A stretch of 64,000 bases of DNA from NCBI GenBank assembly GCA_965645245.1, contig OZ287067.1, positions 2,728,001-2,792,000 on the forward strand. Direction: 5' to 3'. Positions 1 to 51,161 of the stretch are shown here, in pieces. The first letter of the stretch is position 1, and each line of letters opens with the position of its first letter. The translations under genes and the position numbers were made by a program. Source of the DNA: Massalongia carnosa (lineage: Eukaryota). The notes beneath the pieces were generated by a model. It had not been told where the DNA came from and ran no database searches. It saw only the letters and a program-made list of their open reading frames with translations.

Positions 1-897
1 GTTTTGAGCAACGGTCTTCCTGCGCTTGCTTGTTTCAATTCCTCATCAATTTTCGTTTGGGCATACCTCAAGCCATCCTCATCGCGGGAGAAGTGGCTCT
101 TGGGAGCCACAACCGTGTGTGACTGTAGGAAAAAGGGCGGAAAAAATCGCTCGTAATCTGGCCGTTCGCTTTTCCGAGGAGTTGCAGTCACGGATCCACT
201 ACTCGGATTGGTTCCATCCTGTATCGATCCCACGGAACTTCGCCGGCTGCTTATAGGACTCTGACCTTCAGTTACTGGTGATCTGCCTAGGCTGCTGCTT
301 GTCTGCTGTGGCTGAATGAAAAAGGAATTTAGGCGCAGTTGGGACTTTACCGCTGTCAGCAAAGCCCCACTGTGGTTCACGCCAACGTACCTTGTCCTTC
401 TTCGTCTTTTCCTCCTCCTTCTGCTTTCTTTCGTCTTCTCTTTGTTTGATATGTGCCTCTTTGATCTTCCGCTTCTCCTCCTTCTCGATATCCCGTAACC
501 GTTTCTCGTCGTCTTTTTTCGTCTTCTCGTCAGCTCTCTGCCGTTCCTTTTCCTCTCTCTCCATTCGCTTCGCCTCTTGCTCGGCAATAGTCAACTTCCG
601 TCTTTTGTTTGTGGCTTTCGTTGTGGCTATTTCTGGCGTTGGCTGCGTAGGTTCATCCCCAGCAGGAGAGCCTTTGCAACTTGGCATAGGGGAACTAAGG
701 CAGGCTAGGTCTGCTAATGGCACCAAAACCTGTGAGGGTGTAAAGTCTAGTGCGGTTATAGCTTCTTGCTGCCCAGGCTGTCGTTTTACGTTTTCTGCAT
801 TGTTCTGCGGACCCTTATCAACATGCTGCATTTGAGCATCGTCGAAAGTGCGCTTAAGCAGATTGGAGGAAGCCATAGGCATTGCAACTGTGGTCAT
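1..897 (-). CDS. RLF2: Chromatin assembly factor 1 large subunit (CAF-1 p150/Cac1), 5' part; runs off the window start
   Basis: K/E/R-rich coiled-coil (KER) region; removing intron 345..390 (GTACGT...GCTGAC...AAG) gives KKDK|SQLRLNSFF, a PIP box directly after the KER domain as in Cac1. Confidence 0.85.
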
Positions 898-990
898 TGA
901 GGCTGATCAGCTTCTTAGAATTATATATCAATTCAAATTGTGGAATTAGAATGAAAATCTAGAAGTTGCCAAGAAGTCTTCAAACAGAAA

Positions 991-1056: not shown

Positions 1057-1133
1057 TAACCGTGCGACCGAGGTAAATCCGATGGACCGCACCCGGAGCT
1101 ACGCTCCAGGTGCGGCTCACCTCCATGACGCTA

Positions 1134-2839
1134 TCATCTCCATGACGCATTTCTCAAACTATTTACATTATATCCATTGATTGACCCTTTCAAAATGAAG
1201 CTATTCAAAATCAAAGGCTGACGTTCATCTATCCAGCTTTCAGCCTTTTTACCCACCAAGCCAAACCGTTTAGCTATCGCTTTTCCATAGAGAAATATTT
1301 TCTTTTGTCTAGCCGTCTCAGCACGCTTTTGACGACCCTCCTCCCTTCCCACCTCTTCTTGGGTACGATGTAGGTGATTTTGCCTCACATCTCGAACGGT
1401 AACGATTCCTCCCTTCTGAACAACGGTGCCAGCAAGCTTTTTCGGGCCCTTTTAGCTAATGCAGCTGTGTGTGTGGCTTGCAAGTCGCGTTGCGTCAATT
1501 CTAGTAAATTAGCGTTTGCAACCGACCCTTTGATAAAACGTCGCATTCTTTCTGGAGTAATTTCTTCATTATCATTCATTCGCTGAATAATGTTTTCCCC
1601 TTCCTTAGCAACGTCTTTGGGCTTTTTGGGGGTATGAGGTAGGATTATTGTCTCCGAAGATGATATTGGTAGTGTGGGTAATGCCGGATTTAAAGCACGA
1701 ATTTTGGTCAAGACTACCTCCGGATTGTAAGGTATCAACCCAGTTTTTTCCCAGGCTGATTTGATAGTAGATGATTTGAATGCCTTTGTACGAAATTGAT
1801 TGAATGCGGCCAGAAAATCCAGACGATTGAATTCAACGTCACCCAACCGAATGGCGTTGTCAACCGCTTCAGCATGATAATGTTTCATTGGCTGAAAAAC
1901 ACCAACGTCCAATGGCTGCGTCAAATGGGTTGAATGGGGGGGTAATCTGAATAAACAGATCTTATTTTCTTTCGAATATTCCCAAAATTCATACGTTAGA
2001 TGAGATCCATATCCATCCAACAAAAGAAGCCTAAACGCTCCTTTTTGAACATTTTTTGAATGAGCATTAAAATGCTTTAACCACTCTAATGCTAGACAAT
2101 CATCCGAATAGCCGCTATCGCTTGTAGTCAACACGATATCATCTTTCAAATCATTCTCTAAGGCCCATTTGTGAAGTATGTTGACCCCTTTCAAAATCAA
2201 AAAGGATGGAACGCTTCCGCCAACTCCATTGATGCATTCGACCGAAGTTATATAGTCTCGATTGTCTGGATCAGCGATCATAATTCGGTTATGTGATGAT
2301 AGTGTCACCACCAAATGGGTTACCCCACAGCCAACTCGAAAGCCTGTCTCATCCATATTCCATATATCATCTGGAGTTATACCAAGAAGGGCGACAGTCG
2401 ATTGAAATGAAGAGAAATAAGTTTGAATATGCGTAACATTGTGAGCGTTTTTCCTTTCGGCTGCTAATGGCTTGCCTTTTTGCATGAAAAATTGGGGATT
2501 TCTTTTCAAGAATCGTCCGGTCCAGCATTTTCCTACGCGGGTGAGAGAAGATGAAGACGAGGAAGGATGTTGCAATTGCAACAAATAATTAGCTGCACCG
2601 CGAATCAATGGCAATCTCATTGATAATTCAATATACTCCTTCAGGGCTAGTTCTTGTGCAGCAGACAGCCTCATATTGACTGCTTTTCGCTTGCTATATC
2701 CATGTAGTCTTCTTTGAAATAGACGAGGTGAAATATCGAATTCTTTGGCACAGGCTGCGGCTGATTTGTATGTGTTCTTTGCAAATGCATCTAAGGCCTT
2801 TGCAATGTTAGCCTCTCGTTTCTTGTACGAATCAGACAT
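1134..2839 (-). CDS. pogo/Fot1 transposase (HTH + DDE_1); 1-nt frameshift near 1438-1442 separates the C-terminal tail
   Basis: Motifs WNMDETGF, LLLLDGYGSH, LPPHSTHLTQPLDVG; adding one A restores RARKKLAGTVVQKGG and the frame runs to a stop at 1134 inside the left TIR. Confidence 0.9.
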
Positions 2840-2890
2840 GATGTGGTTGAATAATAAATGGTTGATGATAGATGATAGAAATTTTTAAAA

Positions 2891-4036
2891 ATGCGTCATG
2901 GAGATGAAAAAAGACGAAACAGAGTCTATCAACACATATTAGTGATAGTAGATCGTTTAACGAAAAGACGATTATACGAACCACTAACCTCTCTCTCTAC
3001 TGATGAACTGATGGATGCGATGTCCAGGAGATTATTCTCCTCTTACGGATTTCCTATATCAACAGTCAACGATCGCGGTAGTCAACTAACCGCTCACTTA
3101 TGGAAAAGAGTTTGCGAAAGATACGGGGTGAGAATCAAATTTTCATCTGCACATCATCCCGAAACAGACGGTCAAACCGAAAACGCCAACAAGGTAATGA
3201 AAAATTATCTCCGAGCATACGTCAATTACACACAAGACAACTGGGTGGATTATCTTTCAGACGCAGAGTTTGCAGCCAACAATCATGTAAATGTAGCAAC
3301 GGGAATGACTCCATTCTTCGCAGACCATGGCTTCCACCCACGCTGTGGCATCGAACCACCAGGCACATACGAAGGAAAAGGAAAAGCAGAGATACTGCAT
3401 GCTGACAAAATCATAGAACGGCAAGAAGCCATGCGAACCCGGCTCCGAGATCAATTAGCCTGGGCTCAGGAAGAACAAACACGACACGCAAACAAAGGCC
3501 GTCAATCTCACCCCGAATACAAAATCGGGGACATGGTTTATGTAAACGCCAAGCACTTTGCTTCAGAAAGACCCAGCAGATCATTAAGCTTCAAGAACAT
3601 AGGACCATGGAAGATAATAAGAATTATCGACAATAAAGCATACGAATTAGAGATCCCGGATCAGTTAAAGAACGTCGGGCTTACCCCCATCTTTCATCCG
3701 TGGAAGCTACATCTCGCACCTTCCAACCCATTCCCAGGACAAGTCTTACCGCCTGGACCGCCCATAGCCATAACCGAAAACGACGAAGAGGAGGCCCACG
3801 AAGAATGGGAAGTCCTCGAAATAATAGACTGCCGCGAAACAAGAAAGTTCGGCGTGCAGTACAAAGCAACCTTCATTGGAAATTGGGATGAATGGAACGC
3901 GAACCCTTACTGGCAACCATGGACAGACTTCAAGAATTCAAAGGACAAAATCCTCCAATACCATCGAGAACATCCACAGAAACCCAAACCACCAGATGAT
4001 CTAACAAAAATAGATTATAATCAAGAATGGAGGTGA
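2891..4036 (+). CDS. Ty3/gypsy (chromovirus) integrase core plus chromodomain, lacking the N-terminal HHCC finger
   Basis: IVDRLTK, VNDRGSQ and HPETDGQTENAN give the D-D-E triad; IGPWKII resembles GPY/F; chromodomain EWEVLEIIDCR...YKATFIG...WQPWTDF. Confidence 0.9.
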   Translation: MRHGDEKRRNRVYQHILVIVDRLTKRRLYEPLTSLSTDELMDAMSRRLFSSYGFPISTVNDRGSQLTAHLWKRVCERYGVRIKFSSAHHPETDGQTENANKVMKNYLRAYVNYTQDNWVDYLSDAEFAANNHVNVATGMTPFFADHGFHPRCGIEPPGTYEGKGKAEILHADKIIERQEAMRTRLRDQLAWAQEEQTRHANKGRQSHPEYKIGDMVYVNAKHFASERPSRSLSFKNIGPWKIIRIIDNKAYELEIPDQLKNVGLTPIFHPWKLHLAPSNPFPGQVLPPGPPIAITENDEEEAHEEWEVLEIIDCRETRKFGVQYKATFIGNWDEWNANPYWQPWTDFKNSKDKILQYHREHPQKPKPPDDLTKIDYNQEWR

Positions 4037-4175
4037 GCCGCACCTGGAGCGTAGCTCCGGGTGCGGTCCATCGGATTTACAGTCCCGTGCCAAAAGTCTG
4101 CGGCCCAACCCGTGATTTTCGTGATTTCGCGTTTTCAACTCATCAACCCCCCATCTTCCACCTCATCATTTCACG

Positions 4176-5261
4176 ATGCTTCATGCTTCTTTGACCCCCA
4201 TAAGTGGTAATCGGCCTCGTAACACTGAATTGACGCCATATCAACATGGCATGATTGTTGGGGCCCAGGCGTTGGGGCACACACCGACCGAGATTGGGAA
4301 GACTCTTAATTTCACTAAACCGATCGTGCAGAGCACCATTCAGAAGCACTCAATTCGCAACGACGGCGTGTCTAAATCACGTTCTGGACGGCCTGAAGTG
4401 CTGTCAGAACGCGATCGACGTTATATCATCAAGCATGCACGAATCAATCCACGAATCACTTATGCACAAATCAAACTAGAAGTGGGGCTTGGCTGCAGTC
4501 GTACGACCATTTATCGGGCACTCAAACTGTATGGTTTAACCAACTGGGTGGCTAAAAAACGACCTTTATTGACGCCTGAGGTGGCCAAGAAACGATTGGA
4601 TAGGTGCTTGCTGCGGCGTGAGTGGACTTTTGAGCAGTGGTCAAGAGTTATATGGTCAGATGAGTGCTCGGTGGAAAAGGGGTCAGGAAAACAGCGTCAG
4701 TGGGTGTTCAGATTGCCGAAAGAAAAATGGAATAAAGAGATGATACAACCTGTCCCCAAAGGCAAAGGAGTCAGTGTCATGGTTTGGGCAGCTTTTTGGG
4801 GAGATGACAGGTCAGATCTTTACAAATTGGCTCGTGATTTTGCTGCGAAGAAGATGGGGTACTCGGCGAACTCATATCTGGAATTATTGAACGCTAATCT
4901 GCTTGGAAGTTGGCAACCGGGCCTTATTTTCATGCAGGATAACGCACCTATACATAAGGCTAAAAAGGGGATGGAATGGTTCAATGAGAACGGCATAGAG
5001 GTCATCGATTGGCCCCCCTATTCACCTGATTTAAATCCCATCGAGCACGTTTGGTATGTGCTCAAAAAGCTCGTCTATCAAGTCAACCCGAACATAGATT
5101 TGGTGATTGGCAGTGATGAAACTGTTCGTGAGGTACTTTGGAAAGCGTTAGAAGAAGCCTGGACGTTGATAGATGTGAAAATGATGAGGAGGTTAATAGA
5201 GAGCATGAATAGGAGGATAAAAGCGTGTATAGCGTCGGAAGGATGGTATACTAAATATTAA
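4176..5261 (+). CDS. Tc1 transposase, uninterrupted ORF
   Basis: N-terminal HTHs with RSGRP; catalytic motifs WSDE, MQDNAPIH, WPPYSPDLNPIEHVW. Confidence 0.95.
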   Translation: MLHASLTPISGNRPRNTELTPYQHGMIVGAQALGHTPTEIGKTLNFTKPIVQSTIQKHSIRNDGVSKSRSGRPEVLSERDRRYIIKHARINPRITYAQIKLEVGLGCSRTTIYRALKLYGLTNWVAKKRPLLTPEVAKKRLDRCLLRREWTFEQWSRVIWSDECSVEKGSGKQRQWVFRLPKEKWNKEMIQPVPKGKGVSVMVWAAFWGDDRSDLYKLARDFAAKKMGYSANSYLELLNANLLGSWQPGLIFMQDNAPIHKAKKGMEWFNENGIEVIDWPPYSPDLNPIEHVWYVLKKLVYQVNPNIDLVIGSDETVREVLWKALEEAWTLIDVKMMRRLIESMNRRIKACIASEGWYTKY

Positions 5262-5442
5262 AAATCAATTTTTGGGGGAATTCTTGTTTAGTAATCATTA
5301 TGTAAAGTTTCAAGACATTTCAGCAATCGTGACGTGGTTGATTGTTGATTGAATAGATGAGATGGTTCTATGTCACGTGAGGCCCCTGAGTCAAAGTAAA
5401 TTAAGAATCACCCTCTGAAAATTCTTTCCTCATCCACTTCTT

Positions 5443-5690
5443 CTCACTCGGCCTCATCCATCTCACTGACTCGTCGTCGACCCCACGTTGTCTCGGTGCC
5501 CCTACCTCGCTGTCAGTGCTTGCTGCTTTTCCTCACTCGGCCTCATCCATCTCACTGACTCGTCGTCGACCCCACGTTGTCTCGGTGCCCCTACCTCGCT
5601 GTCAGTGCTTGCTGCTTTTCCCATCTCACTGACTCGTCGTCGACCTCACGTTGTCCTCGGTGCCCCTACCTCGCTGTCGGTGCTTTTTCC
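5443..5690 (+). repeat. About 2.8 copies of an 89-bp tandem repeat in the retrotransposon leader
   Basis: Identical units start at 5443 and 5532; a 5'-shortened, slightly diverged third unit starts at 5621. Confidence 0.95.
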
Positions 5691-5692
5691 CA

Positions 5693-6706
5693 ATGACGAA
5701 CACCCGTTCCCAAAGCACCCCGATGGACGACATAGTCCCCGACTCCCAGGAGATTGTCGGATTGACGCAGGCCCAGTCCAATCAAATCTTCGCCCTACAA
5801 AAGAAGAAAGCCGAGGCAGAAGCGAAGGCGGCCGAGGCTGAGGCCAGAATTGCCGAGTCCAAGGCATTGGTCGCCGAGAAGGAGGTGGAAAAAATGCAGC
5901 TAGAAATCGACTGCATGCGCCGAGAATCTGACGCCCGAATAGCGGCCGTCATTCCTGCTGGCAAGCCGAGTCGTGTCGTCGGCGATGACGACGAGGACCT
6001 AGGTGAGATCCCTCTCGAAGTAAGAAGTATAGCACCCCGTTTCGCGGGCCTACCACAGGACGAGATCATCAAGATCTTTTCAAATAAATTCAAAGCCATC
6101 AACCTCTCCCGCCTCCGACACATGCACGGCATGCAATACGAGTCCTACAAGGATCAGGACCGCATCGGCATCGAAGACGGCGCCTTGAGGTTGAGAAAGG
6201 CATCCGGGACCTACAAAGATTTCGGAAAGACAGTTCATGACGTCTGGACAGAGAGCTTCATCAACTACACCTCGATCATGGTCAGTCTTTTCGGGAAATC
6301 GAGTCAACAGCTTCACGCCACCATGTCGGCATTCCACGGAAAAATCCTCACGCTGGCCAAGGTGTACGGGTGGCAGGAAGCAGTCCTCCCCCTCACCATC
6401 GAAACCCACACTCACATCATCGCGTCTCAGCCATCCGACGCATCCCAATGGAAAATGCCCGACGAATTCCAAGCTCGATTCTGCACCCCCCTCACAGTCC
6501 TACGCCGTCGCCGCTCACGATCCCCGCCGTCCCGGCGACCGACCCCGAGAGGAGACAGGGCCGATAGGGCCGAGAAGGCAGCGGGGGAAATCTGCGACAA
6601 GTACAACAGCGGCACCTGCACCTGGCCGTCGTGCTACCGACAGCACAAATGTAAATCGTGCGGCGCGGCTGGGCATGGCCAGAAGACATGCCCAACGAAG
6701 AAATAG
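5693..6706 (+). CDS. gag-like ORF1 of the YR retrotransposon
   Basis: N-terminal coiled coil; C-terminal CCCH finger followed by the CCHC knuckle CKSCGAAGHGQKTC. Confidence 0.85.
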   Translation: MTNTRSQSTPMDDIVPDSQEIVGLTQAQSNQIFALQKKKAEAEAKAAEAEARIAESKALVAEKEVEKMQLEIDCMRRESDARIAAVIPAGKPSRVVGDDDEDLGEIPLEVRSIAPRFAGLPQDEIIKIFSNKFKAINLSRLRHMHGMQYESYKDQDRIGIEDGALRLRKASGTYKDFGKTVHDVWTESFINYTSIMVSLFGKSSQQLHATMSAFHGKILTLAKVYGWQEAVLPLTIETHTHIIASQPSDASQWKMPDEFQARFCTPLTVLRRRRSRSPPSRRPTPRGDRADRAEKAAGEICDKYNSGTCTWPSCYRQHKCKSCGAAGHGQKTCPTKK

Positions 6707-6751
6707 GGGGTTGGTGCAGGAGGCAGTAGAATAGCTTCAATAGCTGAATTC

Positions 6752-8456
6752 ATGACGTCCCATCCCTGCTTACCTGCACCAATCAGACCAAATACAATCC
6801 CTTCGTTTCAACTCGTAGACGCATCTCGTCAGCGTTTGAAAGACAGCCCATCTCCCCTCGTACCGTCCGCATGGGCAACTCTACTTCAAGAGTATCCGGG
6901 CCCCCTCCGAGTCCATCTGCCCATGATCCTTCGTTTCGGAGTACAAATCGGATACGAAGGCCCCACAGACATCCTTCGGATCGAAAAAAATCTGACATCA
7001 GCGAATGAGGACCCGGAAACGATCGAGAATAAGCTCCAAGAGGACCTCAGGAAGGGCCGAGTCAGACGAATAGCCGCCCCGAGTCAGCCATTTGTGGCCT
7101 CCCCCCTCGGCTTGGTCCCGAAACATGACGGAGGATGGCGACGCATTCATCATCTGTCTCATCCCAATCAAACATCAGTCAACGACAACATTCCAGAAGA
7201 GGCATCCAAATTACAATACGCCAGACTCGACGACATTATTCAATTGATTTCTGTCAGCGGGCAAAGGTGCTGTCATAGTGAAAAGAGACGTCAAAGACGC
7301 CTTTCGAAACGTTCCCGTCGCACCTCATCATCAATGGCTTCTGGGTTTCGGATGGAATGACGAATTCTACACCGAGACATGCCTTTCGTTCGGACTGTCG
7401 ACGGCCCCGTTCATCTTCAATCTTTTTGCGGAAGGCTTTCATTGGATTTTGGAATCCTTTCTGCAATGGAGATTACATCACTATCTAGACGACTTCGTTG
7501 CAATTTTCCCATCCGAGACATCGTCAGAACGATTGCACCAAGAAACAAAAGCCTACAACATTCTCACCGACATTCTTGGCATCCCGAGAAACGACTCAAA
7601 AGACGCCGAGGGAACGACAGCGACAGTCTTCGGACTCGAGGTCGACACCATCAACAGTCTTATTCGTCTGCCAGCGGACAAGCTGGAAAAAGCGAGAATC
7701 ATCACTACAAAGGCACTAAACGAGACGACAATCAGCCTCGGCGACATGCAGTCAATAGCGGGCTTCCTAAGCTTCTGCGCACAGGCAGTCAAATTGGGCC
7801 GAGTCTTCTTACGATTATTCTGGAATTTTATAGCCTCATTTCCCTCGGGCAGTCATCGTCGGGTCAAAAGAAGAATTCCCACATGGGTCAGACAGGATCT
7901 CATCTGGTGGAACAAACTTCTAGTGGACTTCAACGGTATTGTCTTCTTCGAGACGTCAACACGAGACACGATCAAGGTGCATACGGATGCATGCCTCACG
8001 GGTCTCGGAGGCTATTTTCAACAAGACAACGAGCTCGTGAATCAAAAAAACGCATGTAGGGCCCGAGTCCTAGTCCTCAATCAGGAAGGATCACCGAGCA
8101 TAAACGTCCGAGAAGTCGAAGCTATCCTTCTAATCCTTCAGAAATGGGCGCCGACATGGCGACATCGACAGATCCTTGTCTTTACCGACAGCAACACAGC
8201 ATACACAGGATTCACGAATCTAACCCTCAAGGGACCGGCCAACGCGCCTCTACGAGAAATACTGTCCATAGCTGCAAAGTGGGACATCGTACTACGTTGT
8301 CAATGGATCAGTGGCACTTCCAATGGACTAGCAGATGCCCTGTCACGTTTTGATGATGAAAGATTGGCTAACTTTTGCCCTCATTGGCAGAACCCATACA
8401 ATTCGATGAACCTCCCTCCACCTACCTATCCTCCACACCAGGGTCAGCCCTGGTAA
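6752..8456 (+). CDS. Reverse transcriptase / RNase H with a +1 frameshift at 7263-7265
   Basis: LGLVPKHDGGWRRIHHLS, KRDVKDAF, LSFGLSTAP, HYLDDF; RNase H TDAC..E..TDS..NGLADALSR; deleting one A joins the two ORFs (SGQGAVIVKRDVKDAF). Confidence 0.9.
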
Positions 8457-9538
8457 AACGTCTCGTCTGGCACGGACACTCGGCGGACACGAGAAAAGGG
8501 TACGGGACGGCGATCGACTCATACGAGGCATTCTGCGCGACGACGGGACGCACGTCGTGGCCTGCAACAACCGAGTCCCTCGAGGAATGGCTAGCCGGTC
8601 GACTATACGGGGGCGGCACACCCAAGCAGGGAAAGATAAAACCAGAGACGGCAGCGAGCTACCTCGCCGGCCTCAGATCATACCATGTAGACCGAGGATA
8701 CGGCCTCACCCCATTCGAGGGGCCGAGACTTCAATTGATGCTGAAAGGGGGAAAAAGGATCTTTTCTCAGACAAAAAGAAGACGCCTACCCATTTCAAAA
8801 GAATTACTGACAAAAATCACCAGTATTCCCGCTCATTCGGCCGAAGACCTCAACATCGACGCGACATTCAAAGTTGCATGGGCAGGGTTCCTCAGACTCG
8901 GGGAAATCACCTACACTGTCGCTGATCGTAAGAAGACATCTTTTCAGAGATTGAAACCTACACGAGGTGACATCTCATTCGCCGAGAACGATCAATACGC
9001 GACATTACGTCTCAAAAGAAGCAAAACAGACACAAATCACTCAGGAGTTCAGATAGTGCTGGCAGCGACCAATGAGAGCACTTGCCCCGTGACAGCACTA
9101 CGGCGTCTTTTCAGAAATGATCCTCAGCCATCTACATCCCCGCTTTTTCGTCTCGGCACCGCATTCACCAGAGCCTCCGTCATAGCATCCCTGAAAAAGA
9201 GACTGATAGCCGTCGGCATCAACGACTCGGCATACTCGGGACACAGCTTCAGAAAAGGAGCAGCACAACACGCCGCCGACCACGGGATGCTGGATGAGAG
9301 TATTCAGAGACTCGGAAGATGGTCATCAAACGCGTTTCAGCTATACTTTCAGACGTCCCAGGCCTCACTATTCAATTTGAACCTCAGTTTTCAAAAAGGC
9401 ATCCCTCTAGCAGTCCCACGTGCTGTCGTCGCCGAGACGAATCCTACAAACTCCTACCCCTACTCAATTGGGCATTCCATTGGGCGTACAGGTCAACCAG
9501 GGCATCGATCCGGAGCGCCGCCGGGCACCTCCATCTAG
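8375..9538 (+). CDS. Tyrosine recombinase of the YR retrotransposon
   Basis: Catalytic set FLRLGE, KRSKTD, HSFRKG, GRWSSNAFQLY; overlaps the RT ORF. Confidence 0.93.
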   Translation: MPSLAEPIQFDEPPSTYLSSTPGSALVKRLVWHGHSADTRKGYGTAIDSYEAFCATTGRTSWPATTESLEEWLAGRLYGGGTPKQGKIKPETAASYLAGLRSYHVDRGYGLTPFEGPRLQLMLKGGKRIFSQTKRRRLPISKELLTKITSIPAHSAEDLNIDATFKVAWAGFLRLGEITYTVADRKKTSFQRLKPTRGDISFAENDQYATLRLKRSKTDTNHSGVQIVLAATNESTCPVTALRRLFRNDPQPSTSPLFRLGTAFTRASVIASLKKRLIAVGINDSAYSGHSFRKGAAQHAADHGMLDESIQRLGRWSSNAFQLYFQTSQASLFNLNLSFQKGIPLAVPRAVVAETNPTNSYPYSIGHSIGRTGQPGHRSGAPPGTSI

Positions 9539-10179
9539 ATCATCGCCGTCGGGCACTGCCGTCGGGCATCATCTATCGGATCGTTGAGCGTCAGCAGACG
9601 CCTCGGGCCTAGAAGATGAGGTTCTCACCTCAGCACCGACCCCGAGTCACGTGCCTAGGCCTGCCCGGGCTGACCTGTGTCGTTCCCATGCCCAATCAAA
9701 TTCAAGCATTCAAATCAATTCATCCAATTAAAAGCCCCCCCAGCGCAAGCGAAGGTAACGGCACCGATAAGGGTCATAGAATGATTGAAATGTTGGTGGG
9801 GTGCGGGGCCGCAGACTTTTGGCCTAGTACTGTACCTCGGTCGCACGGTTAAGCTAACTTAGGAAGAATGACTGTTCAACGCCTCCTTTCTCTCCCCATT
9901 CGAACTTTCTAAGTACGAATACGGTTGGCATATTCAGGTTTTTAAGTACATTCTCTATTCATGAAAGGCTTTTGATTGCTCATCACTGCCGACGTCCAAA
10001 GAACAGATCTGTAGCAAAGATGTGCTTCAAATCAACATCAAGGATATAACTGTCATCGGAGCTACTCGAGCTATTACATTGATAGACTCAGTCGGAAGTT
10101 CATGGCTGACAAAGCCAGTAGTCATCAGACGCCATAACGCATCCCATCTCGAGTTGACAAGATAAGCTCTGTCCTGAGG

Positions 10180-12102
10180 TCAATAATCAATAACCTCATT
10201 TGCAGGCTCTTGATTTGCGCTCGAGGAACTCCCGTAACGGCGATACTGCATGGAGACTTCTCGCGCCTGGAGATTGAAAGTGATCGAAACGTCAAACACT
10301 CTTGCCCAATGCGGTATATCGTCGCAGCGGGTTACAATCCCTAGCCCTTGCTCTTCCGTTTCCATGACTCTTTGGCACACCTTGGCGCAAACAATACTAT
10401 TCCAGACGCCCTCTTGCCTGGCGGACGAGGCCAGAAGGCTGATTGCTTCGCGGCGGATGATGGGATGGCGGCACCTGTACCCCACGATATTGAGCGGGCT
10501 CACGATATTCTCATCAAGGCAGAAATTGGGTTCAGATTGTGATGTATTCTTTTTGCTTCGCTCGATGCCAATAACGGATTGAGCCAAGAAAACGATACGG
10601 CCGAACACAGGGCAATAGGGATCCCAGACCATTTCGTCACAAAGTCCTGTCCGCGAACATGCGTCAATGTTCATGGCCCCTATCAAGTACTGAATCTCTA
10701 GAACATGTGCTGCTTGAAATGCCCTGGAATCCAACTTGCCCTTTGATGAGTGGAGGAATTTGGCAAAAGCAACGGACCATCTATGAAGTTTTTTGGCAAG
10801 GTCAAGTCGTCGGGTGATTTTCCAGCTCGTAAGATCGTGCGAATGTTGCTCCTTTACATCTTGAAAAAAATGGAGGCAATGGTTCCAGTGAGACTCATAG
10901 GAATTTCTAGCTTCTTCGACAGAGGTAAATGAAACAGGCGCTTCAGCGCCTGAGCTTTCAGGTGAGTTTTCTTTTCTTTTCCACATTATTGTCGGTCGAG
11001 CGCACTGTACCTATCAGTTTGATCAGCATTAAGCTCGCATTGCGACACAATAACTACGATATTAAACTCGCTGATCCTCAAACCATACCTGAGCTGCTTG
11101 ATTGCCAAGCCGAGTGAACAGAGCCTTAAATTCTGCCAACAGGACATATGAAGTTGAAGGGTCGGCCAAAGACAGGCAGTGATTATCTTTGCTGACTTTC
11201 CCAAGCGAATAGCGCAGTACACGAGCACCGCTATCAATATGTGACAAGGCTGAACAGTGATGGCCTCGGAGGGTCTACAGGTTTGTGAGCTCATGCTTCT
11301 TACATGATTGTTCATTTATACTCGGGGCATGATGTCAAACACGAAGAACTCTTACCTCGAAGCACGCAAAGAGCACACATGATATCAAGCAGACATCCCT
11401 TAGTTCCGAGCTTGCCGCAGGCTTGACCAATTCTTTTATGGCCCACCCATACTGCTGCAAGGCAAAGTCACCTTCAATTTTTTCGTGGGTTAAGCTTTCA
11501 GCAGCTACGAAGCGTGCATGCTGGGCACCTAGCGCAATCACTGCGTGCCGTATGGCTGGCTCGTGGTGGGTTAATTGAAGTACCCAGCGATCCCAAAAGT
11601 CCGATATGAAGAACCCTGATAGCTGTGGAACCGTTCGTGTGCGAAAGAAATCCAAATAGCTGATCTCCTCTTCGCTGCCCCAGGATAGAGATAATGAGTA
11701 AGACGTAATTGAAATGCTGGAAGTGGTTTCTCTAGTCGTTAAGTCGCCAACGCTGCCGTAAGATCGATCTCCCCGTAGATATCCATCGCATCTGCGCCCG
11801 GTATTGAGGCATTTGCGACAGGCTGGTTTCCCCTCGTCACACTTTACACGGCGAGCTAGAAATACGATCTATCAGCCTTTCGTGCGGGGTCAAGGGCGGG
11901 CCTATATAAATCTTACTCCTGTACACAACGTCAGCATCAACCCTCTTATGCAACCCAAGATCCTATATCAGCGCGAGCAGCAGCGGAGGCAATCTTCCGA
12001 CGCTCAACCGGGCAAGAGATATGCTCACTTGCATGTCATGCACCCGGTTTTGACTTTGGAAGTTTGTCGTCCAGTCTTCTGGGCGGTCTGCTCGGTTGAC
12101 AT
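10180..12102 (-). CDS. Zn(II)2Cys6 transcription factor with a fungal-specific C-terminal domain (multi-exon)
   Basis: [48 protein letters not shown]...EPAIRHAVIALG; RCRHPIIRREAI..RQEGVWNS. Confidence 0.88.
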
Positions 12103-16802: not shown

Positions 16803-18601
16803 CGTCGCCGGCGCGTTCGATACGGTATCTCATCAACGACTAACGCACAACCTACGGAAAAGAAAAATTCCAAAATGGATCACCGACTGGTTAAACAGCT
16901 TTCTGAGCGATCGAAGCACCACTTTAGCAATAAATCGAAAAGTCACCGGGCGGTTTGCGGTAAGAACGGGTATCCCGCAGGGCTCTCCCCTGTCATCCAT
17001 TCTTTACCTATTTTACAATGCAGATCTATTGGAAATATGTGATCGACCAGGCAAAAACACAAGTGCCATAGGATTCGTAGACGATGCAAACATTTTGGCA
17101 CATGGAAAAAGCACCGAGGAAAACTGCAAAACTCTAGAGGCAATACACAGACAATGTGAGACGTGGGCTTCCCGGCACGGATCCGTATTTGCTCCGACGA
17201 AGTACGAACTCATACACTTGTCCAGAAATCCCAAAAGATTCAACATGACTGCATCTATCAATATTGCTAGCACCGAAATTGAACCAAAAACGGACATCAG
17301 AATATTGGGCCTACAAATCGACACCAAATTGAAATGGGGACCGCACGTTCGCAAAGCGCAAGAGAAAATGGTCAAACAATCCATGGCATTGACAAAAATT
17401 TCCACATCAACCTGGGGTGCCACCTTCGCCAAGGCAAGGCAAGTTTACAGTGCCGTGGTGCGTCCGGCCATGACATATAGGTCAACCGTATGGCACATGC
17501 CCAAAGAAGTCAAAAAGTCAAAAACGTCAACGAGCAAGCTCTCCGTCATGCAAAACAATTGCCTTCGCACCATAGGCGGTGTCTTTAAAGCCACTCCATC
17601 TCAGTACTAGAAGCAGAGACATTCATAGCGCCCATAGACACGCATCTCGACATGCTACAAGCACAGGCAAGGCACCGGCTCCGAGCCGGAGGCCAATTGA
17701 AGATCATCTCCTCCGCATGCAACAAAATAGCTGAAAAACTTCGAGGCAAGGCAGGTCGCAAACGACTTCAAAAGCCCACCCCGGGAGAGCTGAAACACAT
17801 CTGGGCCAAAAGCCTACTGATCGACTCAAAAATAGTTCAACCACCAAAGGCACACCCACCATGGTTCGAAGTCTACCCGGCGTGGCACCGCGAAGCTACC
17901 GTTGCGGCAACGGCCCGACACAAGCAGATGCAAACAATTAAAGCACGACAAATGAAGGTCTGGAACGACTCGTGTTGCGCATATCAAAATCGCGTCATCG
18001 AACCCTCCATAGCACAATCAGTCCCACTGAGCAAAAAACGGCTGAAAATACACACACAGCTAAAAAAGGCAGAAAGCGCTCTAACAACACAAATCCGCAC
18101 TGGCAAAGTCGGGTTAGCTGACTTCCTCTACAAGCGACGGGTGCCCTCCGTCACCTCACCGGCCTGCTCATGTGGCTGGCACAGACAAACTCCAGAACAT
18201 GTAATCATGTTCTGCAGACTTATTGGCAATAGAGAACAGATGTTTCGCGCCGCCGGCACGAGCGACTATCAGCAGCTGACCGAATCATCAAAAACTCTGA
18301 AGATACTAACTGCTTGGCTAATGAAAACAGGCTTATTGAGTCAGTTCTCACTATTATTGTACAATCAACAGTAGTTGAACCTTTCTTTCTTTCTTCTCTT
18401 TTCACAAGGCATTACAGTTCCCACACGTCTTTTGCACTGCGTCTCCCGCCCGACGTCGACCCGTAGTCACATCGGACGGGTATCATGGGATATGGTTTTT
18501 ACACCTGTTAAAGGTTTTCCATGTAACATAACTTAGATAGCTTTGCCCGCATGGGCCGGCCTACGGCCGGTGTCATATCGGAGTATGAATACATCATCAT
18601 C
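16803..18601 (+). mobile_element. 5'-truncated LINE (Tad1-like), RT plus C-terminal Cys/His motif
   Basis: GIPQGSPLS, GFVDDA, CSCG...HVIMFC; (CAT)n tail; 16-bp TSD ATCATCACTCTCAAGA at 16787..16802 and 18602..18617; frameshift near 17597. Confidence 0.95.
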
Positions 18602-23119: not shown

Positions 23120-23842
23120 GGTCGAGTTCGCTCAGAAGAGAACCTCTTTGGAAAAGCGAGAAAGAGCGGGATGGTTTTGATATGACAGTTTAGCTACCTT
23201 CGAAGAACCGAAAGGCCACTGGGCGTTCCGGTGGCATGTTGATAGAGATTAAGGGATCATGCTGTCGATCGAGGAGACAATCTAGGTTTCTGTGAAGGCG
23301 AGAAGCTTGCTAGAGGTTGCTAAGAACCGCCATGAGCGTTGCATGATCACGTCTTCACGGGCTAGTAAGACACCATTATGTTCTTGAAAAGCATGACACA
23401 GATGTATTGGGGGGTGGTGAGGGTGAGTTGTGGTTGAGATACGGTGGTGATGCCCGATGGTGGAAAGATCCCCTCCACGTGAAATGGCGGATGCGGACCG
23501 GTGCACACAAGCCTCGTTCCCAGCAGCTTTAGCCGAATCACGCAATGCACCCCCCTTGCAGCAACTCGGCAACTCACCAGGACCATCCCAGTTATCACCA
23601 GCTTGTTACCTGCTAGCCACAAACTCCAGAGTGCCACCGACTCTCATCAAACGGGGAGAAAAGCCTAGGTCGCTCCTGGCTTGGCCCACCCACAGTCCGT
23701 CATTCGGAGCAAGTCGTGATTTGCTAGATAGTGGTAGCAGTAAATGGCATGATTCATATAACCAGGAGTAATTCAGCGTAGATAGCAGAGAATTCGTAAC
23801 AGTGACTGTTGGCTGTGCCTCGTTCATATTGTAGCTTGCACC

Positions 23843-26800
23843 ATGTCTCCTGCAATCTCGGAGACTCCCTCCGTGACGATACAGCCAGAAAAGAAAATTG
23901 AAGTCGACGCGGATCATGGAATCAAGCAAACAGCCAAATGGAATGGAACTGAAACCCCTGACAAAACCACAAAACCAGTGGATGGAATCACCAAAACCCC
24001 TGACAAAATCACAAAATCAGTGGATGGGATCACCAACGGCCATGTCTCAGACACGAATGGCCTGGAATCGGCGAGCCTGAAGTACAAGGGCGAGCAATCA
24101 ACAGAGGAGCAACAGATGGGCACTAGAACGGTTGGAGAGGAAACAAAATCGAACATAAAAAGCCTCGAGAATGGCGTCAATGGCGTAACGGGACATGACC
24201 AAGTCAGCGATGACCAGTTTCAGCGGCTTCCAAAACCACAACAAGACATACTGCTGCTCCATGGCCCTGGCCAGCGTTATCGTCTGGAGAAAGCGCACGA
24301 TATTCCGGAGCTGAAATCTATACATGAAATCCTGGTTCAAGTACATGAGGAATACTCTCAGCAGACCGCTTTTTTGCTGATATCCGTAGGTGGTCGCCAT
24401 TGGCTTGAACCCCGTCGACTGGAAAGGCCCGTAGGTATAATTTCAGTCTTCATGTCAGGACCTATCTAACGGGATATATAGCGATTACAACTTCGGTCTT
24501 CCTTCGTTTCCATGGATTAATGGAAGAGATTTCGCGGGAATAGTGGTCAAAGGCCCTCAAGCGGCCTCAAGAATCAAGGCTGGCGATGTGGTAAAGTCAC
24601 AAGCAGGAGAGAGTGTGTTGAATGCGAGCTGACGAGAATCGATAGGTATTTGGCCCCTCCACAGATTATCGCGACGCCCGCAAAGCGGCGTACCAGGAAT
24701 ATGTCGTGACAAACAATTTTAACGTCGCAAGAGTGCCAAAGAATCTTTCCGTCCAAACAGGAGCTGCTATAGGTGTAGCATTCGTCAGCGCCATCTTATC
24801 GCTAGGCGTTTCTTTAGGCGTCGACTTCGTCCAGGTTATCAAAGCCCCAATGGGCCCCAACTTGAAAGAAATTCTTGAGCGAATCGGCCGCGAAGCAATC
24901 CCAGAAGATGTCCGAACCGAGTGTTTTGATAGCATAGGAGCTGCGGAGAGACCTAAGCACGGAGATTGGATTGCAGTCTGGGGAGGTGAGTTTTCTAATC
25001 ATCCATGCAAAGTCGGGCGCTGATCGTTAAGCATCTTCAAATACTGGTTTAATGGCCATTCAACTCGCTAAACTTGCTGGTCTGCGCGTTATTTGTGTAG
25101 CAGATCTTGTTCGGCACGGAGCACGGTTGAATCAATTGGGGGCCGATGTCCTCGTTGATAGGCAGGATAGTAGCCGTGCTGTTGAGATCATCCGAAGCGT
25201 GACCAAAGGAGAGTTGCGGTTCGCATTCGACGCAGTAGGAAAGGAGACTGCTGGCTATCTGCAGGAAAGTCTTATCCAGCAAGAAGGTGCTACGCAGGCG
25301 CACCTAGTAGGTTTAACAGGACTCCCCAAAGAGGCCGCGCTGGGCGTGAAACATCATAGCGTTCCCATCAAGGTTTTCCATTCCACTCCAGTAATCGGAG
25401 AACCCATCATGACCTGGCTGGAGCAACTTCTGGCCGCCAATGCGCTGGCGCCTCCAGATGTGGATATCGCACAAGGGGGGCTTGAAGGAATCAATGACGC
25501 ATTGGATCAACTGAGAGGGGGCAATGTATCAGGAAAACGCATTGTGGTGCCGCTCGGAACTAGGCAAACGCCACGACAGAATGAAAATGATTCAGCTGAT
25601 AACACTAAAGATACGATAAAAGTTGGTAGTATTGAATACGCAGAAAAGCTCAATGAGGATCCTTCAAGGATTAAGTTCGCGTAAGCAGTCAAGACAACTC
25701 ACTTCAATAGCACTGGCTCATGATTACCAACAGTTACTGGGTGCCCAATGTTTCTGGAGGGTTGGTCATCTCAAGAATCGCCCAGAGAACCAAATGGGAT
25801 CTTGATTCCAACATCAAGTACGCCCGCACTGCTGAACAAGTCGGCTTCGAGTATGCCCTCTCACAGATTCGTTTTATGGCTGGTTATGGCGCAGTACGTC
25901 TCTCCAAACTCCAAACGAAGCTGATGCTGACGGTTCATTAGGATAACCAGCATGAATCTGTTTCTTTCTCTCAAGCGCTACTGCACTTTACAGAAAAGCT
26001 CATCGTAATAGCAGCACTTTTACCTGGTCCGTGGAATCCCGCCGTTGCTGCGAAGCAGATAGCGAGTATCGATAACTATACAAATGGCCGTATTGCCGTG
26101 AATATCGTTTCAGGCTGGTTCAAGGTACGCTCATACGGATAGCCCTCACTAAACCCAAATTTGATGAAAGCGATTTAGTTAGAATTCACTTCTATCGGCC
26201 AGTGGTGGTTGGATCACGCAGAGAGATATCGTCGAAGCAAAGAATTCATTTCCTGCTTGAAAGGCATCTGGACCCAGGACCAATTTAACTTCAAAGGCGA
26301 CTTCTACCAATTTCACGATTATCCGCTTAAACCAAAGCCAGTCGTGAAGCCAGGTCGTCCTCATCCAGAAATCTTCCAGGGCGGGAACTCTATCGATGCT
26401 CGAGAGAACGCAGCTACTGTATCCGACTACTATTTCATGAACGGTAACACACTAGAAGGCTTCCAGACACAGATTGCCGACGTGAAGCAGCGAGCAGAGA
26501 GAGAAGGCCGGCTGGATCAAGTCAAGTTCGCATTGAATGGCTTTGTCATTGCCCGCAAGACCGAGGAAGAGGCCATTCGAGTCTTGCAAGAAATCCAAGG
26601 AAAGGCCAACAAAGAAGCCGTGGAAGCTTTTGGCGAAGCAGTCCAAAACGCTGGCGCTAGCACCGCGAACAAGACCGGCATGTGGGCCAACTCGAAATTC
26701 GAGGACCTCGTTCAGTATAATGATGGGTTCAAGACCAAATTGATCGGAACGCCAGAGCAAATCGCTGATCGGATTTTGCTTCTCAAGTCACTTGGTGTCA

Positions 26801-32689: not shown

Positions 32690-34179
32690 TCAACCTCCAT
32701 CCTGTTGCTTCTGGGCGGCTAGCAAATCCTCCACAGTGCGAATCTCATGTCTCGCTTCGCCAAGGGTCTCAAATAACTCCTTGTATGTTGCGCACTGCGC
32801 CCGATCAATTCTCTCATTCTCGGTCCATCTGGGCGGCATCTTGCCTTGTCCAGGATCTCTGGCTCTCTGTGCCCAATCAACCAGACTATTGTGATATTCG
32901 AGGTCATCCGGAAAGGCCAAATGATGAAACCTTTTCCCGGTCCCATGTCTGGCAATAAGCGACTGCTCCCAAGATAGCATCTCGAATTTTGAGGGAAGAA
33001 CTAGACGACCCGCCCACACTCTCGATATCACGGCGGCCTGGCCTTCGAAGGTCCGGAACGGAACAATATGTTTTGGCAGAGCAGCGAATGCCAAAGAGGG
33101 ATGATCGATTGAAAATATATGCTCGAAGAGACGTTTTACTCTGTCACCAGTATCGATAAACTGCGGCACGATAGACGAAAGAAAGGGGTAGGAGTAAAGA
33201 TAGCCAGTGCAAAATACAACTGCATCAATGTGGGTCTCAACGTGCCCATTAGAAAACCTGACTGCTCTGATATGCTTCGATGGGGGTAATAATTCTGCAA
33301 TTTCTGGCATGTATACTTTCAACGGAGTAGGTTTTATCGGCGGGTTCGACCTCAGAGAGATCATGACCGGGGATTTGCTGTATGAGGAAATGTGCGTGGA
33401 AATGTCATGACCCGAGGCGGAATTTCCTACAACGAGTACCTTTTTCTCGGCAAAGTCCTGCGGGCGCTGGTAGAATTTCGAATGAGCTATAATCCCTTTA
33501 TAGGTGGCATTCCACTCGTTAGCTCCGGGGATATATGGTATATGCGGTACCGAATAATGACCGGAAGCTACTACGACAGCATCATAAAAGCCACGAGATA
33601 CAAGTCCACTGCCTATGGATAGAGTATCTACCAACCAGGTTTCTTTACCATCTATGTTGTAATAGCTTACGCTAGTGACCTGAGTTTTGAATTTAACAAG
33701 ATATCGGACATCCTTTCCATATGTTCTAAGATATTGCAAGGTGGCATCGCGGCTTGGAAATAACTGATTCTTCCTAAGTTCTTGTAGATCCGAAAATTCC
33801 ATCAGAAAATGCGGAATATTGGTCTCCAAACCTTCATACATCGGCGAGACGAATTCATATTCACCGGCGGCTTCTTCAGTTTCGGCGCTTGACCCTGGGG
33901 CTGTGGATCCAACCCGGATTGGTGTCTCTAGAAGTTGAAAAGGGTTCGTCTGAGGAACGTCTGTTTGCCCAGCCGAGGACTTAGAGTAGTTCCATAAGCC
34001 TCCAAAAGATGATCGCTGCTCAAAAATATCAATTGTTCTAAACTTTTTTTCTGCCAACAAGTATCTAAAATTTGGGTTAACACTGAAATCATGCTGTGGT
34101 TTGTTGCACCAGATGCCTACTTCGCTACAGCGATACCCGCAGGACCACCGCCAATGATAGCAATGTGGCTGATGTTCAT
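32690..34179 (-). CDS. Flavin-containing (thiol-specific, FMO1-like) monooxygenase
   Basis: IAIIGGGPAG; FMO motif YKGIIAHSKFY; VVGNSASG; FCTGY; one 5' intron. Confidence 0.92.
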
Positions 34180-34872
34180 TTTTAAGGCCCGAAGTTTTCT
34201 AAACAGGATCGAGATCGAGAGATTCTTGTCTCTTTTCACGGATCCAATGGCGAGAATATCAAACAGATTGCCCGGCAATACTATACTATTGTGGGAAATA
34301 TGGAACAAAATCCATCACCGCCATGCAAACCAAAAAGCGAGGGTGCGGCAGCTTGCCGACCGAAAACCAGCATTTGGAAATTTATCTAGGCCAAATCTCT
34401 TTACATTTCCAACTCGTTATTCACGCGATGATCAGCTCATAGCGATTGACACGCAATAGTGATCTAGATGATCTTGATGATGAAGCTGAAGGAGAAAATG
34501 AACATGCTGTGGATGGTTGAGTGGCCCCGGGTAGATCTCCCATGGCCTTTCGGCTTCTCAGACCACTCATCCGATGGTCACAACAACTCGTCCAGACAAC
34601 GACTTCATGTTATAAAATGTCCCCAGCGGAGGATCGTCGATCAATAGCAGAGAGTTCACGCCTACGATGTTGTGATAGATCAACGTTCTAGACTCCAAGC
34701 CCCTCACATGGCATAATACCCTGATGATGGACTACCGGCAAGAGCAATAAGCATAGTAAAAGTCTCGCTCGGTCTCGATCAATTGGCCCGTACTCATATG
34801 CATTCCGTCATACGATTGTGTGACCATGCCGATCGTTGATTTGACGTTTGACGTTTGATAAGAAGATCAAGG

Positions 34873-39700: not shown

Positions 39701-40708
39701 ACGGGAGTACAAAAAACAATTGGAGGTCGTCACCCGATTCAACGTCTGTTCAGTGGACAAGGTGGATTTTCTGAAGATCATTCGAAAAGCAAGAAAAGAA
39801 GCAATCAACACAAAAAACGTGCTGACTGCATGGAGAGCAACCGGATTAGTACCATACAATCCGTCATCAGTTCTTCAAAAACTCACTAATAAACAATCAG
39901 TTTTTGCGAAAGACTGATAGCATCACCACCACCACGAATATCACCTCCTCTTCCCATCCTAACACTCCGACAACCCTTCAAAACTCTCACGAAATTGAAA
40001 AGACACCTGCAAATATCGATCAAATAAATCAACTGATTCGTCGAATTCGGAATGATGAAGAATCAGACTCGACCCCCGTCCGAGCGCTAAATATGCCGTC
40101 GCAGACTCTACCTTGCTAGGTATCACCAACAACGAGCTTCTTCAGGCTAATGTACGGCGCCACCATCGGGTCAATCGTAGCGGGGCTCACTATGGAGGAA
40201 AGGCTCGAGTCCTAAGCCTTGAAGACGTTCAACAAAGACAGCAATGGGCCAAAGATGAACAAAAGGTGAAAGGCGACAAAAAGAAGGCCGCTCAGCTAAA
40301 ACGAGCCGAGCAGGACCTTATCAAAACTTTCAGGGAAATGTGTCAATTTGGACCTGATTTAGTAGGACAAACGTCTACTGCATCTCCGACGAAAAGTCCT
40401 CAGAAAGCACCTGATAGTTCACAAAGTAGGCCTATTTCTTCTTTCAAAAGACGATTACTACCTCCTCCCATGCTTCAACCAATGACAGAAGAGGTAGAGG
40501 GGGTGGGGGAGGTGAAGAAGGTTCAAACTAGCAGACGGGGTCGTATTATACGTCAACCACGTAAAATGTGATTAATTTGCATGCAGACAAAATATCAATT
40601 TCATGTCTAATAGATATTGAAGCCGAATTTGTATGTAAAAAGGGTGAGAGGTAGGCTTTAGAAATTAAGCGAAATTTAGTTAGTCCCGTGTCCCGTTACC
40701 CAGTGAAA
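36755..40708 (+). mobile_element. pogo/Fot1 DNA transposon, degenerate and split by a LINE
   Basis: Imperfect TIRs TTTCACTGGG..AACGGGAC..CGGGACTAA.TAAAT; TA at 36753-54 and 40709-10; transposase pieces 36919..37272 and 39041..40571 (YNMDEKGF, LIVDGHASH, LQPLDV). Confidence 0.9.
37273..39028 (-). mobile_element. 5'-truncated LINE (Tad1-like), relative of the 16803..18601 element
   Basis: GIPQGSPIS, GFVDDV, CSCG..HIILHC; (ATC)n tail; TSD AGCAAGGGGG(G)AT at 37260..37272 and 39029..39040; removal restores transposase LLRARGDHTVLGVNW. Confidence 0.95.
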
Positions 40709-48651: not shown

Positions 48652-48725
48652 TAATCGTGCTAAACCACTTTCGGAATGGAAGATAAGGGATGCTCTTCCA
48701 TTCCGAAAGTGGTTTAGCACGATTA
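48652..48725. mobile_element. Ultra-short hairpin MITE-like element
   Basis: Perfect 32-bp inverted arms (including terminal TA) at 48652..48683 and 48694..48725 around a 10-nt loop. Confidence 0.75.
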
Positions 48726-51147: not shown

Positions 51148-51161
51148 ATCTTCGAAGGTAT

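Follow-up and report, generated by a model that had tools for sequence, protein, structure and literature searches.

An 8.8-kb stack of mobile elements occupies the central TA dinucleotide of a perfect 36-bp palindrome in Massalongia carnosa. The stretch of DNA analysed (hereafter, the window) comprises 64,000 nucleotides (nt) of GenBank assembly GCA_965645245.1 (contig OZ287067.1, positions 2,728,001 to 2,792,000, forward strand), and the stack is located at positions 1057–9851 of the window. It consists of a pogo/Fot1-type DNA transposon (here termed pogo-A) and a Tc1-type DNA transposon, each of which contains retroelement-derived sequence, flanked by the two arms of the palindrome. At about even odds (probability roughly 0.5), the palindrome is a transposon-derived micro-hairpin, the central TA of which was then taken by two unrelated cut-and-paste elements in separate events. 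That two successive TA insertions took place follows directly from the anatomy of the site; the transposon origin of the hairpin, the preference for the site, and the order of the events are what we infer.

Anatomy of the stack and its palindrome

The layout was determined by direct reading of the sequence and by an inverted-repeat search, both with the 64-kb window as their scope. The components, in order, are as follows.

1057..1058, no strand: left outer TA, a putative target-site duplication of the hairpin or else simply the palindrome's outermost pair
1059..1073, plus strand: left 15-nt arm, ACCGTGCGACCGAGG, matched in the window by its partner arm only
1074..1075, no strand: TA at the left end of pogo-A, a copy of the central target TA (sequence read)
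1076..4077, minus strand: pogo/Fot1-type DNA transposon pogo-A, 3002 bp (inverted repeats; DDE_1, E=5e-20)
4078..4079, no strand: single TA shared by the right end of pogo-A and the left end of Tc1 (sequence read)
4080..9832, plus strand: Tc1-type DNA transposon, 5753 bp (inverted repeats 4080–4106 and 9806–9832)
9833..9834, no strand: TA at the right end of Tc1 (sequence read)
9835..9849, minus strand: right 15-nt arm, CCTCGGTCGCACGGT, the exact reverse complement of 1059–1073 (sequence read and repeat search)
9850..9851, no strand: right outer TA (sequence read and repeat search)

The outermost inverted-repeat pair (1057–1075 and 9833–9851) is 19 nt long and 100% complementary, and this complementarity ends at the outer TAs, which are followed outwards by C at 1056 and A at 9852. 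Within it, a pair of 54 nt at 100% (1073–1126 and 4027–4080) marks the ends of pogo-A, this length being due to extension of the 51-nt terminal repeat by the TA and one chance base, and a pair of 29 nt at 86% (4078–4106 and 9806–9834) corresponds to the Tc1 repeat plus its TA. In silico deletion of the stack together with one TA yields a perfect 36-bp palindrome with 18-nt arms. The runner-up palindrome in the window has 10-nt arms, and the largest palindrome arm measured 0–12 nt across 20 windows simulated with a first-order Markov model; at 36 bp, the palindrome is far beyond the expectation from base composition and is not a chance feature. The 32-bp hairpin inside the outer TAs has a DNA fold of -20.2 kcal/mol, vs. 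a shuffle mean of -4.0. Because at least two matches to the arm are also reached in 21 of 100 shuffles, the number of arm matches carries no significance by itself; what stands out is that complementarity is exact and falls precisely at the element junctions. Open reading frames (ORFs) that span the three junctions are of 33–79 amino acids (aa) only, and neither the arms nor any junction recurs elsewhere within the window. A preliminary description of this DNA had proposed the arrangement TA-arm-TA-pogo-TA-Tc1-TA-arm-TA, with the TA at 4078–4079 shared and the palindrome re-formed on removal of the elements; this is borne out by both the sequence reading and the repeat search.

The transposons and the elements within them

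Four coding features are distinguished inside the two DNA transposons.

1134..2839, minus strand: pogo-A transposase gene, frameshifted (main ORF 1385–2839, 484 aa; tail frame 1134–1451)
2908..4026, plus strand: Ty3/gypsy pol fragment, ~1.1 kb, approximate bounds (C-terminal part of the integrase core, SH3 domain, and C-terminal region; no long terminal repeat)
4176..5261, plus strand: Tc1 transposase ORF, 361 aa, uninterrupted (Pfam and translation)
5340..9690, plus strand: retroelement 3' of the Tc1 ORF, approximate bounds (gag-like, reverse transcriptase (RT)/RNase H, putative tyrosine recombinase, in this order)

The terminal inverted repeats of pogo-A (1076–1126 and 4027–4077) are 51 nt long and 100% identical, and are accompanied by subterminal inverted repeats (1134–1174 and 2867–2907); with TA at 1074–1075 and at 4078–4079, both the TA duplication and the terminal repeats of a pogo-type insertion are present. 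The transposase gene is recognised by the Pfam domain DDE_1 on the minus strand (1385–2884, 72 bits) and belongs to a cluster (90% identity) of 33 protein variants. Full-length relatives in this cluster are 574 aa in length, and the pogo-A gene carries a frameshift near 1440. In addition, six residues (EFLDDI) are missing in frame from the Tc5 DNA-binding domain, for which HTH_Tnp_Tc5 scores 16.4 bits in pogo-A vs. 28.9 bits in the relative P0141 (cut-off 22.2). pogo-A is a true member of its family but a defective copy, as regards the frameshift, the domain deletion, and a foreign integrase fragment. In P0139, from a pogo-A copy on another contig, the frameshifted C-terminus recurs (..ARKSLLAPLFRREESLPFEM; 1385–1451) and the 6-aa deletion is absent; the frameshifted variant is therefore present at at least two loci, having been mobilised in trans or duplicated. 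The inverted repeat of pogo-A (1076–1130 and 4027–4077) additionally holds a GC-rich near-palindrome centred on TAC, with a single-stranded fold of -15.3 kcal/mol (z=-3.8) that was equalled in 0 of 200 shuffles.

The integrase fragment in pogo-A is of Ty3/gypsy type (Pfam rve and SH3_Tf2-1 at 2879–4036), and is situated between the subterminal repeat at 2867–2907 and the right inverted repeat. It forms part of a chimeric pogo/integrase ORF of 381 aa, both ends of which differ from those of the native integrase: the native protein reads ..ECRRRNRVYQH.. and ends in ..KIDDNQESG, vs. MRHGDEKRRNRVYQH and ..KIDYNQEWR in the window frame. These chimeric ends were found in none of the 11 members examined of the 19-member gypsy integrase cluster, and the capture therefore looks like a one-off event, perhaps arising from template switching during gap repair.

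The Tc1 element has 27-nt inverted repeats that begin with CAGT and contain GCCAAAAGTCTGCGGCCC, with all mismatches confined to a 5-nt block (positions 5–9), and its TA duplication is present (4078–4079 and 9833–9834). The transposase region (4125–5261) matches HTH_Tnp_Tc3_2 (56.4 bits) and DDE_3 (56.2 bits), both above their cut-offs. The closest match to the transposase is 95% identical, its cluster (90% identity) comprises 64 member sequences, and the closest named match is from Cladonia (50% identity).

The retroelement 3' of the Tc1 ORF encodes a gag-like protein (5693–6706), an RT/RNase H (6752–8456, broken), and a putative tyrosine recombinase (8372–9538), which would place it in the DIRS order. 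RVT_1 is matched at 7248–8456 with 43 bits (47.6 bits in the full-length relative P0184), and RT_RNaseH with 22.3–22.8 bits, just under the cut-off of 24.8. The Phage_integrase match of the recombinase frame (8372–9538) is weak (17–17.5 bits vs. a cut-off of 27.1), as is that of the SAM-like domain (15.2 bits), and a PDB sequence search with the recombinase returned nothing meaningful (top match an endolysin, E=0.13). Translation of the window DNA gives the motif HSFR...LGRWSSNAFQLY in this frame, which we take to fit the HxxR...Y signature of tyrosine recombinases. An 89-bp tandem repeat (5437–5685; two full copies and a third that is partial and diverged) is located on the 5' side of the retroelement, before the gag-like ORF. 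The retroelement proteins form clusters (90% identity) of 54 and 59 members, and the 266-aa recombinase frame is sequence-identical on 11 contigs; this tyrosine-recombinase (YR) retroelement family looks very young and abundant. To our knowledge, retroelements with tyrosine recombinases are uncommon in ascomycetes, and a burst of them in a lichen-type fungus may merit a study of its own. All four families (Tc1, pogo-A, gypsy integrase, and retroelement) are multi-copy on megabase contigs, and the stack also shows this genome to have very young, active pogo, Tc1, and YR retroelement families.

The gene content given in the preliminary description (pogo, integrase, Tc1, RT, RLF2, and Zn2Cys6) is confirmed by Pfam, with the YR match being the weak one. 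Its view of the stack as three intact-ended elements holds for pogo-A and Tc1, the ends of which are verified. It does not hold for the YR retroelement: no pair of terminal repeats, whether inverted or split direct, was found for it in the window, so that its ends are undefined, and its pol is broken (202 aa vs. 567 aa in relatives). The pogo copy, for its part, is internally defective.

A candidate explanation that would dispense with a landing pad altogether has pogo inserting inside a Tc1 inverted repeat of 46 nt, with the arms as the outer 17 nt of this repeat. It is rejected on the basis of the family terminus, TA-CAGT, and of the unrelated flank in P0125, a protein of 465 aa encoded on another contig, which belongs to the same 90%-identity cluster as the window Tc1 transposase and is 95% identical to it. 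P0125 reads through the 5' region because a one-base difference in a C-run opens the upstream frame, giving ...LALGRRNH-TVPCQKSAAQPVIFVISRFQLINP...; from TVPCQ onward it is identical to the translation of window positions 4079–4150. In the frame of P0125, arm plus TA plus repeat would read *PCDRGTV (stop-PCDRG-TV). In the distant relatives P0013 (59% identity) and P0058 (49%), similarity likewise starts at xTA-CAGTGCCG, and the Tc1 terminus TA-CAGT..CCG..AAAGT is encoded in all three read-through proteins. Since P0125 has the same repeat from TA-CAGT and an unrelated flank, the arms are outside both elements; on this comparison of copies, they are shown to lie outside the inverted repeat of the Tc1 family. 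A search for more read-through proteins over the Tc1 left end (query P0125 residues 41–125) gave 51 candidates, none with E<=0.001. The arm has no significant likeness to the inverted repeats of pogo-A, Tc1, or two further pogo-type elements of the window, pogo-B and pogo-C; a gapped apparent match of the arm to the pogo-A repeat has p=0.16.

Origin of the palindrome and repeated use of its central TA

An unbiased scan of the stack-removed window for perfect hairpins with arms of 11 nt or more and loops of up to 40 nt yielded exactly two, the 36-bp palindrome and a second hairpin, H2. The same scan yielded 0–1 hairpins in each of ten simulations, with arms of at most 12 nt.

48652..48725, no strand: hairpin H2, empty, 74 bp with the TA ends counted (32-nt perfect arms, 10-nt loop)

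Both hairpins are TA-bounded, and both start with TAAYCGTGC and end with its complement. This 9-mer has four occurrences in the window, which are the four hairpin ends (expected 0.66; four were reached in 1 of 100 shuffles). By our own estimate, two random termini would match at 8 or more of 9 positions with a probability of ~1e-4, or, given the TA, at 6 of 7 with ~1.3e-3. Because H2 shares the TA-bounded terminal 9-mer, the palindrome is not a lone motif. H2 has a DNA fold of -37 kcal/mol and is situated 171 bp from the left end of pogo-B (48897–53429). It can alternatively be parsed as TA-ATCGTGC-TA-(52-bp hairpin)-TA-GCACGAT-TA, which is arm-TA-insert-TA-arm in miniature.

The shared terminus bears on the possibility that the palindrome is a host feature, such as a regulatory or structural motif, which is not itself mobile and received two TA-targeting insertions by happenstance. 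This is possible, although on the unlikely side. The palindrome sits in promoter/3'-flank DNA, ~160 bp upstream of the start codon of an RLF2-like gene and ~330 bp downstream of the stop codon of a Zn2Cys6 gene, and includes CCG/CGG triplets in inverted arrangement. Such triplets resemble the binding sites of zinc-cluster transcription factors. A host motif would also be consistent with an arm that is unique in the window, with the lack of an autonomous partner among the window elements, and with a whole-arm likeness to H2 that is not significant. It does not account for the TA-bounded terminal 9-mer of H2, which is absent from the remainder of the window; moreover, a perfect palindrome of 36 bp is far above the composition expectation and longer than typical factor binding sites, and a host motif alone leaves the double insertion unexplained.

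If the palindrome is a transposon-derived micro-hairpin, it would have been left by a TA-targeting family (Tc1/mariner/pogo superfamily) with the ends 5'-AYCGTGC, either as a minimal Stowaway-like non-autonomous element (a micro-MITE, from miniature inverted-repeat transposable element) or as a remnant made up of the inverted-repeat ends only. The hairpin would be flanked by its own TA duplication, 1057–1058 and 9850–9851. An ends-only remnant could arise by abortive gap repair, with the ends joined at the self-complementary TA (cf. PMC3814204). A first cut-and-paste element then entered the central TA, duplicating it, and a second element, of a different family, took one of the resulting TA copies, which by that time had one arm on one side and an end of the first element on the other. 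The single TA left between the elements is explained by this second insertion into one copy of the pair. The entry of the YR retroelement into the 3' region of Tc1, and the gain of the gypsy integrase fragment by pogo-A, would each have been separate events. Private amino-acid changes (Tc1, 9/361; pogo-A, 6/484), along with the perfect repeats of pogo-A, hint at a Tc1 insertion that preceded the one of pogo-A; the difference is not significant, and the private changes do not order the events, because the counts are too small.

A favoured site, rather than coincidence, is argued for by a rough calculation, which is post hoc. There are 30 TAs in the 514 bp of intergenic DNA and 153 in pogo-A, such that the first insertion would match the central TA with a chance of ~1/30 and the second would fall on either flanking TA with ~2/184, or ~4e-4 for both. 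To pure coincidence in a transposon 'safe haven', where the same TA was taken twice by chance and the palindrome is irrelevant, we give little weight. The finding was chosen post hoc from a transposon-rich window that holds at least four TA-duplicating elements, TA is the sole strict requirement of these families, and clustered insertions are described as common (PMC3695323). Against this stand the value of ~4e-4, which applies even granting that both insertions fell within this intergenic region, and the palindrome itself, which is not a chance feature.

The palindrome might instead be a repair product, in which a break at a TA (for example, from an earlier excision) was followed by snap-back or fold-back synthesis that added an inverted copy of ~17 nt from one flank, with the site being re-targeted later. 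Arms that are 100% identical are as expected of a recent templated copy, and the site is in a transposon-active spot prone to breaks. Template switching in gap repair has been discussed for MITE formation (PMC3814204), and the integrase fragment in pogo-A may reflect similar template switching in this genome. Nevertheless, such a repair product predicts neither the terminal 9-mer in common with H2 nor a TA at both outer ends, and no direct evidence for it was obtained; we consider it improbable.

Less probable still is that the stack is a composite, for which the arms would be working outer inverted repeats and the 8.8-kb stack, or Tc1 with the arms, would be mobilised by a transposase recognising AYCGTGC ends. 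The geometry is formally that of an inverted-repeat-bounded element with a TA duplication, and the same termini in H2 suggest that some transposase may recognise such ends. On the other side, the arms and junctions are without a second copy in the window, the other Tc1 copy (P0125) is without an arm, and the chimeric pogo/integrase ends are in none of the 11 examined of 19 cluster members; a composite also needs an extra transposition on top of the nested-insertion coincidences. Tc1/mariner transposition efficiency drops with element length, which also weighs against a composite. No evidence was found for the mobilisation by 15-bp arms envisaged in the preliminary description, and the Tc1 family moves without the arms.

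Several observations tell against a transposon-derived micro-hairpin as favoured entry site. The outer TAs are ambiguous as a target duplication, because TA is self-complementary, and are possibly the last pair of a host palindrome. At 32 bp, the element would be smaller than any MITE known to us. The second insertion met a half-site rather than a palindrome, namely one arm joined to an end of the first element, so that no effect of a cruciform or palindrome can account for both insertions. The earlier proposal of a tiny TA-flanked hairpin taken twice gains support from the position of the arms outside the Tc1 repeat and from the TA-bounded 9-mer of H2, and is the favoured one of its two options; a role of the hairpin as a landing pad would be a further hypothesis. 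The read-through evidence consists of one close copy, from the 15 listed out of 64 cluster members, and two distant relatives. A search for further arm copies in the 64 kb, with up to 3 mismatches, found none, the two matches being the arms themselves. Likeness between the palindrome and H2 ends 7 nt past the TA and is not significant over the whole arms (anchored alignment, shuffle p ~0.10), and the 9-mer with one mismatch is not enriched in the window (17 vs. 18.6 expected). As the sole other hairpin in the window, H2 is empty and provides no evidence of enrichment of insertions. None of the four window elements is an autonomous element with matching ends (14 comparisons; best p=0.014, uncorrected, for an 8-mer only). 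Finally, the flank CGAGG-TA-CCTCG does not match the target motifs CAYATATRTG, ATATATAT, or similar ones tabulated in PMC2577343; the motifs compared are the AT-rich ones of Tc1, Tc3, Minos, Mos1, and Sleeping Beauty, and agreement with the Sleeping Beauty logo (PMC8934666) is restricted to A at -3 and T at +3.

Precedents can be found for individual parts of the proposed history. Among bacteria, IS1397 and ISKpn1 (IS3 family) insert into the centres of REP/BIME extragenic palindromes, a specificity shown genome-wide. The stack is similar in that an element is at the centre of a short extragenic palindrome, here at a single site. MITE multimers and nested Stowaway insertions are reported from plants (PMC5172404, citing Jiang & Wessler 2001). 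An account of the carrot DcSto elements describes two different Stowaway families 'in exactly the same position', and Stowaway-type families that have just a short terminal motif in common (PMC3695323). As in this Stowaway/Tourist nesting, TA-duplicating elements have here entered a small hairpin and re-used the same position. Unlike in the plant MITE nests, the inserted elements are a full-length pogo and a full-length Tc1 rather than MITEs, and the host is a fungus in which the recipient is seen as one copy in 64 kb. The recipient, at 32 bp (15+TA+15), is also far below the sizes of described MITEs that we know of.

The single TA between the two elements has a counterpart in double insertions at one target, in which the target duplication persists at the junction and which occur at strong target sites (McGurk & Barbash 2018, PMC5932611). 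The likeness to these is that a single target-duplication copy parts the two elements; the pairs described in that study are each of one family (P element, hobo, R1, or Bari), whereas here two families of one superfamily are joined, within a long perfect palindrome. Palindromic target motifs are known for DNA transposons, the termini of which rebuild the motif after insertion (PMC2577343), and are attributed to transposases that act as symmetric dimers and bend the target (PMC2577343, PMC8934666). The present site is comparable in that its symmetry is centred on the duplicated target and that terminus plus half-site can rebuild the target, and it is unlike the known Tc1/mariner motifs, which are of 8–12 bp and AT-rich, in being a GC-rich palindrome of 36 bp that matches none of them. 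Lastly, MITEs have been described that derive from a Tc1/mariner element by microhomology-mediated miniaturisation (Yang et al. 2013, PMC3814204). In that case an internal deletion joins the inverted repeats at a short microhomology, for which the self-complementary TA could have been the junction here. The differences are that the microhomology would be 2 bp and not 6–8 bp, and that the product is much smaller.

More generally, there may be a family of ultra-short (32–70 bp) TA-bounded perfect hairpins ending in AYCGTGC, with symmetric, cruciform-prone centres that serve as preferred entry points for unrelated Tc1/mariner-superfamily transposons. We regard this as doubtful. If true, a 32-bp hairpin would seed multi-kilobase transposon nests; no smaller functional 'landing pad' would then be on record for a eukaryote, and possibly no smaller MITE either.

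Neighbouring features and significance of the site

The genes on either side of the stack, and a further gene in the window, are as follows.

268-906, minus strand: RLF2/CAF-1-like gene, ATG near 897 (Pfam CAF1A_acidic)
11335-11868 (domains), minus strand: Zn2Cys6 gene, ORF ending in a stop at 10180 (Pfam Zn_clus and Fungal_trans_2)
32690-34195: flavin monooxygenase (best named match 55% identity)

For the flavin monooxygenase, 18 matches carry an organism name; 17 of these are from genera of lichen fungi and the remaining one is from Arachnomyces, which points to a host that is probably a lichen-forming ascomycete. No tRNA genes, as possible targeting landmarks, were found in the window. Both of the other pogo-type elements are TA-flanked. 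pogo-B (48897–53429) has 50-nt repeats from ACGTAACCCACC, degenerate transposase pieces, and an insert resembling a long interspersed nuclear element (LINE); pogo-C (36859–40635) has repeats from CATACAAA, a DDE_1 frame (38927–39889), and a nested RT. Palindromic flanks were found at neither. Elsewhere in the window, a 777-nt inverted repeat (72% identity; 16821–17597 and 38253–39029) represents two diverged RT-bearing retroelement copies in opposite orientation, ~20 kb apart, and a 42-bp unit is present as two tandem copies (93% identity; 23952–24035) inside the ORF 23786–24469.

As an instance of nested mobile elements, the stack is neat though rather ordinary; it is located 160 bp upstream of a chromatin-assembly gene. 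It is probably a clean example of two known processes at one dinucleotide, namely nesting in a small hairpin and double insertion at a single target. If the hairpin is one of many, and if these are preferentially occupied, they would make it possible to tell, by a simple rule read from the sequence, where nests of transposons begin in a compact fungal genome. Under the same condition, they would also offer a natural test of whether the symmetry or structure of the target, rather than a specific sequence, guides the TA-targeting transposases of different families.

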